Virus record (IMG/VR): IMGVR_UViG_2693429642_000028
Source of the DNA: a virus
Lineage: Duplodnaviria > Heunggongvirae > Uroviricota > Caudoviricetes
Length of the DNA stretch: 3,389 nucleotides
Strand: one strand, 5' to 3'
Within the stretch, counting starts at the first letter, position 1. Each line of letters begins with the position of its first letter. The position numbers and the translations under genes were made by a program. Below the pieces are notes generated by a model that worked only from the letters and a program-made list of their open reading frames with translations, ran no database searches and was not told the origin of the DNA. Shown here in pieces: positions 1 through 3,389 of the stretch.

Positions 1-315
1 GACAGTCTCCGGAAGACGGTTGTTGCGCACGTATTCGGTGAACGCACTATGGCGACGCTGGGGCGTCTTATGAGCCTGCTGTCACCCTTTGACGTGGTGA
101 TATGGATGACGGATGGCTGGCCGCTGTATGAATCCCGCCTGAAGGGAAAGCTGCACGTAATCAGCAAGCGATATACGCAGCGAATTGAGCGGCATAACCT
201 GAATCTGAGGCAGCACCTGGCACGGCTGGGACGGAAGTCGCTGTCGTTCTCAAAATCGGTGGAGCTGCATGACAAAGTCATCGGGCATTATCTGAACATA
301 AAACACTATCAATAA
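1..315 (+). CDS. insB: IS1 transposase InsB (C-terminal portion of InsAB'), 5'-partial at window edge
   Basis: Frame 1 reads [44 protein letters not shown]…[13 protein letters not shown] with stop TAA at 313-315. This is the recognised InsB C-terminus. The 88-aa ORF in the track starts at an internal Met; the true CDS continues upstream of the window. Confidence 0.93.
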
Positions 316-330
316 GTTGGAGTCATTACC
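308..330 (+). repeat. IS1 terminal inverted repeat (right end of element)
   Basis: Reverse complement of 308-330 is GGTAATGACTCCAACTTATTGAT, the 23-bp IS1 terminal IR. The IS1/host junction is therefore at 330/331. Confidence 0.85.
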
Positions 331-447
331 GTGAGCTTCTTCGCCTTCGGCAAGGCCTTCGAAGTATTCTTCGTAAGCCTTTTCCATGATTGTGTCAAAA
401 TCCATATCACTCACCTGAGTTTCTTTCCAGCCAGCGACGGGCACCAT
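331..447 (-). pseudogene. 3'-truncated host/prophage ORF interrupted by the IS1 insertion
   Basis: The minus-strand reading frame MVPVAGWKETQVSDMDFDTIMEKAYEEYFEGLAEGEEAH runs without a stop straight into the IS1 inverted repeat at 330 and only terminates inside IS1 (track ORF 250-447). The native C-terminus has been replaced by IS1-derived sequence. The same frame is open further upstream to ~480 without an ATG. Confidence 0.6.
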
Positions 448-643
448 TTTCGGTTTTAAACGTTTTGCTTTTGGTATACGTCATCGCGGTGAACGTACCG
501 TCCTGGTTGGGGAACACGCCACATACCAGAGATTCGCTGTTGCCAAGATCGATAGTATCCATGCTGACCTCATTTCCCCTTAACGCCGGGGTAGCGGAAC
601 AAAAACCTGCTGCATAGTTATTAAAGTTGAACCCTGCCGTCAT
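407..643 (-). CDS. Hypothetical small protein (78 aa as called) immediately downstream of the repressor; possibly the N-terminal part of one larger gene that is frameshifted and then IS1-disrupted
   Basis: ORF MTAGFNFNNYAAGF…TYTKSKTFKTENGARRWLERNSGE, with GAGG 9 nt upstream of the ATG at 643. An alternative internal start MDTIDLG… has GAGGT 4-5 nt upstream. It overlaps the IS1-truncated ORF by 41 bp in a different frame. I do not recognise the family. Confidence 0.4.
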   Translation of the reverse strand: MTAGFNFNNYAAGFCSATPALRGNEVSMDTIDLGNSESLVCGVFPNQDGTFTAMTYTKSKTFKTENGARRWLERNSGE

Positions 644-741
644 GTTCTTACGCCTCGGGCTGGCTACTTAACCCCTGACCACTGCCTGGTAACTCGAAGT
701 ATTGCCCTGCATTCTGTGGGGTGGGGAGAGGGAATGAATGA

Positions 742-770
742 AGTTTAGAAAAATGAACTTTTCAGGTCAA
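742..770 (-). promoter_or_regulatory. Candidate sigma70 promoter (minus strand) for the ORF starting at 643
   Basis: Minus-strand TTGACC (plus 765-770), a 17-nt spacer, then TAAACT (plus 742-747). Hexamer match only; no experimental support. Confidence 0.2.
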
Positions 771-854
771 TGTTTTTTTATCAAAACATTTTAAGCAGGC
801 AGCTGTTAAGCCATCACCACGATGGCATACAGTTAATCAAATAGATGAGGTCGG

Positions 855-1493
855 TTAAATATCTTGTTGAATTTTAAAGCATACGCCCAATATGCAAGAT
901 AGATCATCCAGCATAATTGAAGGGTAGCGAGGATTCGTGGGGACTAAAAGAATATCCGGCCCTTCTATCTCCAGTTTACGAATGACAGGTGTTGTGGTCC
1001 CTTTGGGTAAGGCAAGGACAATATTTCCTGGTTGTACGGTTCGATCGGGATCAACAAAAACTGTTGAACCATTTGGGATGGAAACTCCCCCACCAGATGT
1101 TGACATACTGTCACTCTCTAGAACAACTGCAAAGGTATTGGCCGGGATTTCTCCGACAAGCTGCACACAAGAGGTTATTGAGGAATTTTTCATATAATCA
1201 CTCCAGCTTGCTGCCTGCTGAAGTGATAGTAGCGGAACCGTTTTTATCGGCGGTAAAGATAGATCAAGCGAATCACCTGTATTTAACTCTCCTCCATTAA
1301 GAAGCCAATTTTCGTTTACTTTCAATATTTTTGCCAGTGAACTTATGTAACGCGAGGACGGCGCTCCTCCACCGTTCATCCATTGACTTACGGAGCCTTT
1401 TGATGCGCCAGTGGCATTGACAAGGTCTTTGCCTTTCAGGTTTAGCGCATGCATACGTTGGGTTATGCGTTCAGATATTGTTTGCTTGCTCAT
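855..1493 (-). CDS. CI/LexA-like prophage repressor: N-terminal XRE-type HTH plus C-terminal S24 (LexA-like) peptidase domain
   Basis: 212-aa ORF. The N-terminus carries an HTH-like segment (…GKDLVNATGASKGSVSQWMNG…). The C-terminus aligns by eye with lambda cI: ESDSM vs EGNSM (catalytic Ser), FVDPDRTVQPGNIV vs LVDPEQAVEPGDFC, VIRKLE vs FKKLIR (catalytic Lys), LVPTNPRYPSIM vs LQPLNPQYPMIP. It is divergent from the rightward early genes. No Shine-Dalgarno precedes the ATG. Confidence 0.93.
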   Translation of the reverse strand: MSKQTISERITQRMHALNLKGKDLVNATGASKGSVSQWMNGGGAPSSRYISSLAKILKVNENWLLNGGELNTGDSLDLSLPPIKTVPLLSLQQAASWSDYMKNSSITSCVQLVGEIPANTFAVVLESDSMSTSGGGVSIPNGSTVFVDPDRTVQPGNIVLALPKGTTTPVIRKLEIEGPDILLVPTNPRYPSIMLDDLSCILGVCFKIQQDI

Positions 1494-1556
1494 GTTTTGA
1501 TTTTAAAACACAGATGGTTTTGTTTCTTGACTTTCTTTGGTTTTGATTATTAAACT
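1493..1556. promoter_or_regulatory. Divergent immunity-region operator/promoter: three GTTTTG-initiated sites at 23-bp spacing, with PRM-like and PR-like promoter candidates
   Basis: GTTTTG occurs at 1494, 1517 and 1540, exactly 23 bp apart. Site 1493-1510 TGTTTTGATTTTAAAACA has 6-bp inverted arms (TGTTTT-N6-AAAACA). Site 1540-1555 GTTTTGATTATTAAAC is a close relative. A rightward -35 TTGACT lies at 1527-1532 with -10 candidates around 1548-1556. A leftward -10 TAAAAT (plus 1500-1505) sits 6 nt from the repressor ATG. Confidence 0.5.
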
Positions 1557-1584
1557 TTTGGCGTTCAGTTTTATGGAGCGACTC

Positions 1585-1827
1585 ATGAAAAAATCAGAAG
1601 TATTAGGCTATTTTGGCGGAGTTGTTAAAACAGCCGCAGCTCTAGGAACGTCAAAAACCACAGTCAGCATGTGGGGGGAAGAGGTTCCGTGGAAATGGGC
1701 GTTGCTAATTCAGGCAGTCACTGCCGGGGCGCTCAAATATGAGTTACACATACCGACGGTTGTCATTCCCGGTTCTGATCATAATCCGCCTTCTAACCAA
1801 GGGGGGATTCATGAAAATCAAGCATGA
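1585..1827 (+). CDS. Cro-like HTH early regulator (YdaS-like)
   Basis: MKKSEVLGYFGGVVKTAAALGTSKTTVSMWGEEVPWKW… has a Cro/CI-type HTH signature (AAALGTSKTTVSMW). GGAG lies 7 nt upstream of the ATG at 1585. It is the first gene transcribed divergently from the repressor. The track ORF starts further upstream (1537, and in-frame 1573), but those ATGs lack an RBS. Confidence 0.8.
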   Translation: MKKSEVLGYFGGVVKTAAALGTSKTTVSMWGEEVPWKWALLIQAVTAGALKYELHIPTVVIPGSDHNPPSNQGGIHENQA

Positions 1828-2236
1828 ACACATCCGCATGGCGATGAATGCCTGGGCGCGTCCTGATGGCGAAAAAGTTCCGGCAGCTGGAATAACCCAG
1901 GCTTATTTTGAGTTGGGTATGACGTTTCCTGAACTGTACGACGACAGCCATCCGGAAGCCCTGGCTCGCAATACCCAGAAAATTTTCCGCTGGATAGAGA
2001 AAGACACCCCTGATGCAGTTGAAAAAATTCAGGCGTTGTTACCAGCTATCGAAAAAGCAATGCCACCTCTGCTGGTGGCCCGAATGCGCAGTCATAGCTC
2101 AGCCTATTTTCGGGAACTAGTGGAGACGCGGGAGCGACTGGTGAGAGACGCTGATGATTTTGTCGCAGTGGCAATCGCCGGTTTCAATCAGATGAACCGT
2201 GGTGGCCCGGCAGGAAATGCTGTGGCAGTGCATTGA
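1811..2236 (+). CDS. YdaT-like early regulatory protein (reported functional analogue of CII), ~141 aa
   Basis: Start ATG at 1811 is preceded by a strong SD (AAGGGGGG) and overlaps the Cro-like stop by 17 nt. The N-terminus MKIKHEHI… and the ~140-aa size match my recollection of the YdaT family, which follows a Cro-like YdaS gene in Rac/CP-933P-type prophages. Family membership was not verified by search. Confidence 0.75.
   Translation: MKIKHEHIRMAMNAWARPDGEKVPAAGITQAYFELGMTFPELYDDSHPEALARNTQKIFRWIEKDTPDAVEKIQALLPAIEKAMPPLLVARMRSHSSAYFRELVETRERLVRDADDFVAVAIAGFNQMNRGGPAGNAVAVH
2071..2078 (+). other. Chi octamer GCTGGTGG
   Basis: Exact match to the E. coli Chi recombination hotspot sequence on the plus strand, inside the YdaT-like CDS. 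A single occurrence may be chance. Confidence 0.7.
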
Positions 2237-2306
2237 GTGATAATAGCCATATCGAATCGCTTCCGGCAACTCGTGAGTAAAAGATTCGGTATCAGAAGAG
2301 GTGAGT

Positions 2307-3389
2307 ATGGCTAACGCCTGGCTCAGATTATGGCATGACATGCCAAATGACCCTAAGTGGCGAACAATTGCCAGAGTGTCAGGGCAGCCAATTGCAACAG
2401 TGATGGCAGTGTATATCCACCTCCTGGTGAGCGCGTCACGAAATGTCACGCGAGGTCACATTGATGTCACGACAGAAGATTTGGCAAGTGCGCTCGACGT
2501 GACAGAAGAGGTAATTGATTCAATTTTGCAGACGATGCAGGGGCGGGTACTTGATGGTGATTTAATCACTGGATGGGAAAAACGCCAGGTGCTTAAAGAG
2601 GACAACGGCAATATTTCGCAAACCGCAAAATCTCCTGCAGAGCGCAAGAGGGCGCAGCGAGAGAGGGAAAGAAAGCGGGAACAAAATGGCGATTGTCACG
2701 GCGCGTCACGAAATGTCACGCACATGTCACGACGAGTCACGACAGATAAAGATACAGATAAAGATACAGATAAAGATACAGATCAAGAAGATCAAAACAC
2801 TATGGTCCATGGCGTAAAAAACGCCACGAACCAGGCAGGGGATGTTCAGACCGTCAATCTTGGTCAGCCAGCAGGCACGACACCGGAAGCCGATTCAGCG
2901 TATGCGCTGAAAGCCGATTCGGGCGCTGTGCAGCAGGTGATGACCGCAAGGCCGGAGCAATCACACCAACTGCAGCAGCCCGAAGCCGATTCCGCCATTC
3001 AGCGGGAAGCCGATCGGGTAGTCCCGGAAAACACCGGGCAGTCTGTGGGACGAGTGGATTATCCGGATGTGTTCGAACAGGTCTGGCGGGAGTACCCGTT
3101 GCGTGCCGGAGCAAACCCGAAGAAATCCGCTTTCAGTGCCTGGAAGGCCAGATTACGCGAGGGGGTGCCACCAGAAGCCATGCTGGATGGCGTGAGGCGT
3201 TACGCAAGATACTTGGCGGCTACCGGGAAAACGGGAACGGAATTTGTTCAGCGAGCGACGACGTTTTTTGGACCGGACCGGAATTTTGAGAACCCCTGGT
3301 TGCTCCCGGTAAGCGGCACGAACAACCAGCGTTGTGTGAATCATATTTCTGAACCGGATAACGAAATTCCGCCGGGCTTCAGGGGGTAA
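2307..3389 (+). CDS. Phage replication initiation protein (lambda-O-like replisome organizer), complete, 360 aa from ATG 2307
   Basis: SD AGAGGTGAG lies just upstream of ATG 2307 (the track begins at in-frame GTG 2301). The N-terminus MANAWLRLWHDMPNDPKWRTIARVSG… resembles the N-terminal DNA-binding domain of phage replication initiators. The middle is a charged low-complexity linker (…ERKRAQRERERKREQ…TDKDTDKDTDKDTD…). The C-terminal domain carries DYPDVFEQVWREYP…AFSAWKARL. Position after Cro/CII-like genes fits the lambdoid O slot. Stop TAA at 3387-3389. Confidence 0.85.
   Translation: MANAWLRLWHDMPNDPKWRTIARVSGQPIATVMAVYIHLLVSASRNVTRGHIDVTTEDLASALDVTEEVIDSILQTMQGRVLDGDLITGWEKRQVLKEDNGNISQTAKSPAERKRAQRERERKREQNGDCHGASRNVTHMSRRVTTDKDTDKDTDKDTDQEDQNTMVHGVKNATNQAGDVQTVNLGQPAGTTPEADSAYALKADSGAVQQVMTARPEQSHQLQQPEADSAIQREADRVVPENTGQSVGRVDYPDVFEQVWREYPLRAGANPKKSAFSAWKARLREGVPPEAMLDGVRRYARYLAATGKTGTEFVQRATTFFGPDRNFENPWLLPVSGTNNQRCVNHISEPDNEIPPGFRG
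2431..2471 (+). repeat. Iteron cluster 1: four GTCAC(G/A) repeats at 10-11-bp phasing inside the replication gene
   Basis: GTCACG at 2435, 2445 and 2466, and GTCACA at 2455. The 21-mer GCGCGTCACGAAATGTCACGC (2431-2451) is identical to 2701-2721. An inverted copy CGTGAC lies at 2498-2503. Confidence 0.6.
2695..2746 (+). repeat. Iteron cluster 2: five GTCACG repeats at 10-11-bp phasing
   Basis: GTCACG at 2695, 2705, 2715, 2726 and 2736 (spacings 10, 10, 11, 10). It is immediately followed by the A-rich tandem repeat. The last unit GTCACGACAGA is shared with the end of cluster 1 (2466-2476). Confidence 0.65.
2742..2789 (+). repeat. 12-bp direct tandem repeat ACAGATAAAGAT: three perfect copies plus a degenerate fourth (ACAGATCAAGAA)
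   Basis: Read directly: perfect copies at 2742-2753, 2754-2765 and 2766-2777, degenerate copy at 2778-2789. In frame it encodes (TDKD)n in the linker of the replication protein. Two GATC sites at 2782-2785 and 2790-2793. Confidence 0.9.

Follow-up and report, generated by a model that had tools for sequence, protein, structure and literature searches.

The locus described here raises the question of which gene was interrupted by the IS1 element lying next to the CI-type repressor gene of a lambdoid prophage, and of whether that gene would be expressed together with the repressor in the lysogen. The original prediction, made on the 3,389-nt stretch that we call the window, was that IS1 had inserted into an unrecognised accessory gene occupying a rex-like slot downstream of the repressor gene. 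We propose instead, with a probability of about 85%, that region 250-650 consists of the end of IS1, codons 1-25 of ydfB and a complete ydfA, and that ydfA and ydfB are the promoter-proximal pair of a dicBF-type early-left operon in a lambdoid prophage of the Qin or P22-immC-like type.

The stretch begins within IS1, of which the right-hand 330 bp are present (positions 1-330, plus strand), with the 3' end of insB (stop codon at 313-315) and a terminal inverted repeat that ends ...GGAGTCATTACC at position 330. The translation of 1-315 matches the Pfam family DDE_Tnp_IS1 (5e-57, positions 28-131 of 131), as expected for the DDE transposase InsB. Compared with the IS1A annotated in E. coli HS, bases 1-331 show 99.7% identity, and the alignment extends to the final base of that element. 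When the window was aligned to IS1-free alleles, we observed that native homology begins exactly at position 331, which sets the breakpoint at 330/331. At 100% identity, the window corresponds to the end of the NCBI draft contig CDQY01000220.1 (assembly GCA_000941535.1), a contig that terminates within IS1, and the identical IS1/ydfB junction is present in seven or more additional contigs, which come from other assemblies and from metagenomes; because of this identity and this recurrence, we consider that the junction is real. It is absent from the complete RefSeq E. coli genomes. We discarded 13 apparent full-length matches to 231-430, which are two-piece joins of a nearby IS1 with a ydfB located elsewhere, for example in E. 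coli HS, and an exact 37-mer of the junction gave zero matches in genome_contigs, a collection with one genome per species in which such a result says little.

On the native side of the junction, positions 331-405 (minus strand) align without gaps to RefSeq genes annotated "ydfB: protein YdfB", the identity over the locus being 99.4-99.6%. By this alignment, the interrupted gene is identified as ydfB, which in E. coli K-12 is a named gene of the Qin prophage and which occurs across E. coli prophages and in some phages. Intact ydfB, as found in IS1-free alleles, has 42 codons (MDFDTIMEKAYEEYFEGLAEGEEAHSFNEFKQVLSSSAKSNG; the RefSeq gene is 129 nt long). The window keeps only codons 1-25, and with 17 codons lost it falls short of the full-length 42-codon ORF, so that the allele is a disrupted one. 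IS1 has thus indeed taken the native 3' end of a gene, as had been supposed, and the rest of the reading frame is IS1. The resulting chimeric ORF, ydfB'::IS1 (250-405 in the ORF list, minus strand, 51 aa), is made of 25 native residues (MDFDTIMEKAYEEYFEGLAEGEEAH) followed by 26 IS1-encoded residues; this exact protein is recorded in several NCBI draft and ENA metagenome assemblies, and gene callers sometimes lengthen it to 65 aa by using an ATG at 447 (ORF 250-447). A minus-strand frame running into IS1 therefore does exist, since 250-447 is stop-free across position 330, but it is not the ORF directly downstream of the repressor gene, which is the intact ydfA. The 100 or more residues that had been attributed to a single gene belong to two small proteins encoded in different frames, of 51 aa and, in its intact form, 42 aa. 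Versions of the locus that are free of IS1, with an ORF that continues past position 330, were found as well: region 331-860 has a match in 4,380 of 5,426 complete E. coli genomes, and in 778 of them the match extends over 80% or more of this region.

The gene had been presented as one that could not be recognised. In fact it is known and named, but its function is indeed uncharacterised, ydfA, ydfB and ydfC remaining in the E. coli y-ome of uncharacterised genes (PMC11551758). Relatives that carry the name YdfB in databases share 86-95% identity with the intact allele; altogether 63 relatives were found, all of them 66-95% identical, and every displayed source name is Escherichia. The HMM search and structure prediction on the intact protein that had been recommended gave a match to PHROG 2061, a family of unknown function (2.5e-26), and a predicted two-helix hairpin, with zero family matches in Pfam, NCBIfam and PADLOC. 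In the AF2 model (pLDDT 76, pTM 0.35), a helix at residues 3-19 is followed by a loop (20-26) and by a second helix (27-40); the IS1 cut is predicted to fall in the interhelix loop and would take away helix 2. A helical hairpin of 42 residues is too small for meaningful fold-search matches. The only functional hint that we found for these genes comes from a screen of the ASKA library, in which the ydfB and ydfD overexpression clones were candidates for resistance to both H2O2 and HOCl, and ydfA was a candidate for resistance to H2O2 only (PMC8228696).

The neighbouring gene, ydfA, is intact. It occupies 407-562 on the minus strand (51 aa, DUF1391) with its own stop codon at 407-409, and RefSeq annotates this 51-aa form; by direct reading of the sequence, GAGG lies 6 nt ahead of its ATG at 562. 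An in-frame ATG upstream, at 643, gives a 78-aa ORF (407-643) that is called by some annotators and is the one quoted in the original prediction as MTAGFNF.... Only one base past the ydfA stop, at 405, ydfB starts in a different frame. We rejected the idea that the two are one frameshifted gene, since the same arrangement, a stop and a start separated by 1 nt, is present in intact alleles. YdfA matches Pfam DUF1391 (PF07151; 2.9e-27 over residues 29-76 of the 78-aa ORF, with 94.5 bits for a gathering cut-off of 27.3) and PHROG 751, of unknown function (1.8e-36), and zero NCBIfam families; it has 240 relatives, those that are named coming from Escherichia, Shigella and Salmonella. Its AF2 model (pLDDT 69) contains three to four strands and a C-terminal helix, and comparison with the PDB by Foldseek gave zero matches at E ≤ 0.001. 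A profile search of solved structures gave a weak match to a phage head decoration protein (E = 0.025), which we regard as a chance match and from which the "head-DNA stabilization protein D" labels of some phage records probably stem.

What normally follows ydfB can be read from the IS1-free loci. Region 331-3389 is 98.8% identical to the corresponding loci of strains 120899 and ATCC 11775, in which the RefSeq gene order leftward of the repressor is ydfA, ydfB, ydfC, dicB, ydfD (DUF1482), exonuclease, excisionase and integrase; in strain 120899, the DicF RNA was detected between ydfC and dicB (Rfam, 76.7 bits). The dicBF-type order ydfA-ydfB-ydfC-DicF-dicB-ydfD is present in these two strains and also in the isolated phage Tritos, where DicF is annotated. 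In the window itself, this order ends at codon 25 of ydfB, with no ydfC, dicF or dicB, and the Rfam search gave zero RNA families within the window. In K-12, the Qin prophage carries ydfABC, then dicF, dicB and ydfD (PMC5069750). The polycistronic dicBF transcript of this strain starts at dicBp, upstream of ydfA; DicA represses dicBp, whose activity goes up 22-fold upon deletion of dicA, and the dicA-dicBp intergenic region contains three operators, in a lambda PL-like manner (PMC10448788). Induction of dicBF is toxic via DicB and DicF, YdfD is a lysis protein, and DicB blocks infection by phages that depend on ManXYZ (PMC10448788).

Between the repressor gene and ydfA, a consensus scan combined with allele comparison revealed a putative PL-type (dicBp-like) sigma-70 promoter (742-770, minus strand; TTGACC-17-TAAACT). 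Its -35 hexamer is a perfect TTGACA in the allele of strain 120899; the scan returned 3 promoter-like sites in the window for 2.1 expected in shuffles. The leader of the early-left transcript, placed from the position of this promoter, would extend over 563-741 (minus strand), the interval that separates the start codon of ydfA from the predicted -10 hexamer. An operator-like palindrome, TGTTTT-N6-AAAACA (771-788), abuts the -35 hexamer, so that computationally this interval holds both a promoter and a candidate operator. A second copy lies at 1493-1510, in the divergent cI/cro region; these are the only two perfect copies in the window, and two matches occurred in 0 of 200 shuffles (0.02 expected). 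Another copy, with three mismatches (1539-1556), overlaps the -10 of a rightward promoter-like site; a PR-like promoter (1527-1556, plus strand; TTGACT, 18 nt, TAAACT) precedes a gene of the P22_Cro family (1585-1827, plus strand; Pfam P22_Cro, 1.1e-15). The repressor gene (855-1493, minus strand) encodes a 212-aa CI-type protein with an N-terminal HTH (Pfam HTH_3, 1.7e-4) and a C-terminal S24 self-cleaving peptidase domain (Pfam Peptidase_S24, 2e-13); its N-terminus resembles DicA (NCBIfam, 2.6e-10, below the cut-off), and the protein is presumably RecA-cleavable.

Judged from their motifs and positions, these palindromes and promoters are the classic shared-operator arrangement at PL and PR/PRM. 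The ORF list contains no minus-strand ORF of at least 30 aa between the repressor stop at 855 and position 643, and we found no intrinsic terminator between that stop and ydfA, merely a 6-bp hairpin (810-826) without a U-tract. Since no ORF precedes the promoter and since the palindrome recurs at cI/cro, we infer that an early-left operon of the PL type, controlled by the repressor, begins with ydfA and ydfB, the regulation being assigned by analogy and from the shared palindrome. By the same analogy, ydfAB would lie in the N-position of this operon and is expected to be off in the lysogen; conceivably, the repressor maintenance promoter could give some low-level read-through into ydfA and ydfB' in that state.

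According to this scheme, the 212-aa repressor would bind the TGTTTT-N6-AAAACA palindrome abutting the -35 hexamer and thereby keep the early-left promoter off in the lysogen. Upon loss of the repressor, transcription would start from the TTGACC-17-TAAACT promoter (770-742), and the early-left transcript would yield YdfA and the truncated YdfB chimera before running into IS1. The genes ydfC, dicF, dicB, ydfD and those beyond would be disconnected from their promoter, or else deleted or moved. In this way, toxic division-inhibitor genes (DicF, DicB) and a lysis gene (YdfD) would leave repressor-controlled expression, which would be a normal step of prophage decay. As induction of the operon is toxic, its disruption would carry no disadvantage for a prophage in decay and may even be favoured. 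We also observed that breakpoints recur around ydfB codons 23-28 in public assemblies, this IS1 junction included; in a reading to which we give a low probability, such breaks, by which the toxic genes further down are lost, may reflect selection and not neutral decay.

Whether IS1 simply inserted into ydfB or whether the junction is the scar of a larger rearrangement stands at roughly even odds. The second possibility, to which we give slightly less than one chance in two, is that the junction is the end point of an IS1-mediated deletion, of an inversion or of an IS1-IS1 recombination that removed or relocated the genes from ydfC to int, in which case the 17 missing codons of ydfB would not be found across this IS1. 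A complete 768-bp IS1, with both terminal repeats and the same junction, is present in four contigs, and beyond the element each goes on in its own way, one with two bases only, one with an IS3-family transposase, one with a yad-type fimbrial/htrE locus and one with DNA that lies upstream of xapA. The 3' remainder of ydfB appears in none of the four, nor does the 9-bp duplication GTGAGCTTC, and this speaks for a rearrangement. However, the contigs spanning IS1 are short (1.3-2 kb) and derived from short reads, paths through a 768-bp multi-copy repeat are unreliable, and the flanks may be artefacts; the xapA-upstream and fimbrial/htrE flanks map to unrelated chromosomal loci, and we do not take them as reliable linkage, and the source contig, for its part, stops inside IS1. 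Three other observations point to a rearrangement. In the source contig, the other end (right edge) of the prophage remnant is a deletion scar with an in-frame DUF977::tdcG fusion; another assembly that has this junction ends within a ydaT-like gene, next to mazE; and a scan of metagenomes for a junction between the 3' end of ydfB and the left end of IS1 (TGAAGCT, 0-12 bases, IS1 left end) gave two matches, both at unrelated loci. In addition, given how far the decay of this prophage has gone, a deletion associated with IS1 is plausible. The left end of IS1 tells the two cases apart. After a simple insertion it would read ...TTGAAGCT GTGAGCTTC | GGTGATGCTGCC..., that is, the 3' part of ydfB and the 9-bp direct repeat; a sequence ...TTGAAGCTGTGAGCTTC|GGTGATGCTGCC... 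with ydfC-dicF-dicB beyond it would indicate the same, and another flank would indicate an IS1-mediated deletion or rearrangement.

The interpretation of ydfA and ydfB as the head of a dicBF-type early-left operon can also be considered in the light of phage genomes. Tritos shares 333-726 with the window (ydfB, ydfA and the leader), the homology ending just short of the promoter, and its repressor (CI) differs; as the homology runs to 726, the leader appears to travel with ydfAB. Phage vB_EcoS-640R1 shares 573-860 and has the same repressor; in this phage, a 118-aa gene of PHROG 21318 replaces ydfAB and is followed by ydfC, dicB and ydfD. These mosaic boundaries assign ydfAB to the early-left arm: as far as sequence comparison can tell, ydfAB is a swappable cassette at the head of this arm and travels with it, not with the repressor gene. 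We regard it as unlikely that, as such an accessory cassette, ydfA-ydfB encodes products which act jointly, early after induction, on a target in the host or in a competing phage; their role may in that case be host takeover, counter-defence or exclusion.

In phage lambda, the rexAB genes are located between cI and PL and share the transcript of cI. That the interrupted gene sits in such a slot, is co-transcribed with the repressor in the lysogen and has had an exclusion or defence function inactivated by IS1 now seems very improbable to us. Like rexAB, ydfA and ydfB are co-oriented with the repressor gene and located to its left, with no U-tract terminator in between; their position is swappable, the phage with the same repressor having a different gene of 118 aa there; YdfB has no characterised function; and DicB, from the same operon, blocks phages requiring ManXYZ (PMC10448788). 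Unlike rexAB, however, ydfAB lies downstream of a PL-like promoter with its abutting operator-like palindrome (742-788), and between the end of the repressor gene at 855 and this promoter, where a rex-like gene would have to sit, there is no ORF. The homologous operon of K-12 is repressed in the lysogen by DicA (PMC5069750, PMC10448788), and ydfAB accompanies the early-left arm where the immunity regions differ. Moreover, YdfA, YdfB, YdfC and the alternative 118-aa protein match no PADLOC model, and ydfAB has no sequence similarity to rexAB. The protein data on YdfA and YdfB neither support nor exclude a defence function; what makes either of them a poor candidate for defence of the lysogen is their place in a repressor-controlled early-left operon. 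The intact allele matches neither a housekeeping gene nor a phage structural gene, and IS1-free versions exist, so that the idea of an uncharacterised accessory gene at this locus has been re-filed under another operon and not refuted.

Finally, the junction might be a product of the assembly, if the end of a contig had been collapsed onto the repeated IS1. This would agree with the terminal position of the window in a draft contig and with the multi-copy nature of IS1, but it is extremely improbable since at least five assemblies in NCBI and three of metagenomes in ENA contain contigs with the identical junction (...GAAGAAGCTCAC|GGTAATGACTCC...).

What we see here is the immunity region of a Qin/P22-like prophage, textbook-type in its layout and disrupted by IS1 in a routine way, and as such it matters little: a known gene (ydfB) in a known operon (dicBF type) is disrupted by a known element (IS1) in the ordinary course of prophage decay. 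What is corrected is the map, which now puts ydfA and ydfB in a repressor-controlled dicBF operon and not in a lysogen-expressed, rex-type slot. YdfA, YdfB and YdfC are found in most E. coli genomes, and the sole open biology is the role of these promoter-proximal peptides; a truncated ydfB allele is the wrong place to study it.

When compared with IS1 in E. coli and Shigella (IS1A/IS1B), the element has no unusual features, the length of 768 bp, the InsB DDE transposase and the terminal repeat ending GGTAATGACTCC being common to both. The position of ydfAB in the window matches that of the first genes in the lambda PL operon (PL/OL, then N) and in P22 immC (c2, PL, gene 24) (PMC5069750, in part): in each case, a promoter under repressor control precedes the first leftward genes, and its operator motif also occurs in the region of the rightward promoter. 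YdfA and YdfB themselves, unlike their position, show no similarity to lambda N or P22 gp24; the sole Pfam family is DUF1391, in YdfA, and the PHROGs matched are all of unknown function, with no indication in either of an antiterminator function. From the dicBF operon of Qin, whose repressor is DicA and whose Cro analogue is DicC, the window differs by its repressor, which is a 212-aa protein with HTH and S24 domains (LexA/CI-type) and not the 135-aa DicA, and by the IS1 cut after codon 25 of ydfB. The two have in common the first two genes, their order and their coupling by a stop and a start 1 nt apart, a promoter between the repressor gene and ydfA, and a divergent repressor/cro pair upstream, and the IS1-free alleles of the locus go on, as Qin does, to ydfC, DicF, dicB and ydfD.

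Many 'YdfB, partial' entries in public collections, from several alleles, end at residues 23-28, that is at ydfB codons 23-28 (minus strand; window 331-340 and the equivalent positions elsewhere). The same collections contain chimeras: in protein entry P0051, ydfB codon 24 is joined to ydfA leader sequence, and in P0058 the same codon is joined to other DNA. There is also an allele, represented by P0004, in which ydfA is missing and the leader ORF is joined directly to ydfB. Together, the partial entries and the chimeras suggest that a breakpoint or a recombination junction recurs close to the ydfB loop codons.

Two of the other contigs that carry an identical IS1/ydfB junction differ from the window farther along. 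In contig L005 (GCA_000947375.1), the sequence is identical through window base 1992, homology then stops inside the ydaT-like gene, and past the break (region L005 7600-7760) the contig continues from a point roughly 30 bp upstream of mazE, in the group mazEF-mazG-pyrG-eno. This contig has IS1 ends at both its edges, and the join between the ydaT-like gene and mazE is either a real rearrangement or the product of a chimeric contig. In the ENA metagenome scaffold L014 (271-690), the repressor position is occupied by a 139-aa ORF rather than by the 212-aa one of the window; this pairing could reflect recombination between heteroimmune prophages that followed the IS1 event, or a separate insertion at the identical base; alternatively, the metagenome contig may be chimeric.

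On the source contig, past window base 3389 and to the right of the replisome-organizer (O-like) gene, a DUF977 gene is fused in frame to a tdcG-type L-serine dehydratase (5618-6976 of CDQY01000220.1); the dehydratase part makes up the C-terminal two-thirds of the 452-aa product. From this fusion, the right edge of the prophage remnant is a deletion into the tdc/yha region.

We also observed that the 212-aa repressor ORF (minus strand; window 855-1493, 5525-6163 in ETEC strain 120899 and 5523-6161 in ATCC 11775) is unbroken in all three sequences and encodes an N-terminal HTH (HTH_3, DicA-like) and an S24 domain. RefSeq and the gene calls of the source contig give a 'LexA family protein' of 112 aa (855-1193); the start of the repressor is probably set too late in the public annotation. 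Both the window and ATCC 11775 have TTGACC as the -35 hexamer of the PL-like promoter, where ETEC strain 120899 has the consensus TTGACA (window 763-765 versus 5433-5435 in strain 120899), a difference that would constitute a natural promoter-strength variant adjoining the operator. Several phage genomes (ON470583, ON470580, PV340562) label YdfA homologues 'head-DNA stabilization protein D'; the sole basis found for this label is a weak similarity over 20 residues to PDB 1td0, a phage head decoration protein (E = 0.025), and the label is likely a propagated misannotation.

Within the O-like gene, TGTCACG occurs six times for 0.47 expected, a count reached in none of 200 shuffles. The repeat stretches lie at window 2434-2504 and 2694-2745, and TRF marks a ~10-bp array at 2694-2744. 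Immediately after this array comes a perfect-looking 12-bp tandem repeat (ACAGATAAAGAT, 3.9 copies, 2742-2788) encoding DKDT repeats within the O-like protein's linker. The TGTCACG repeats and the ~10-bp array look like origin iterons embedded within the initiator gene, a placement like that in lambda, where ori sits within O.
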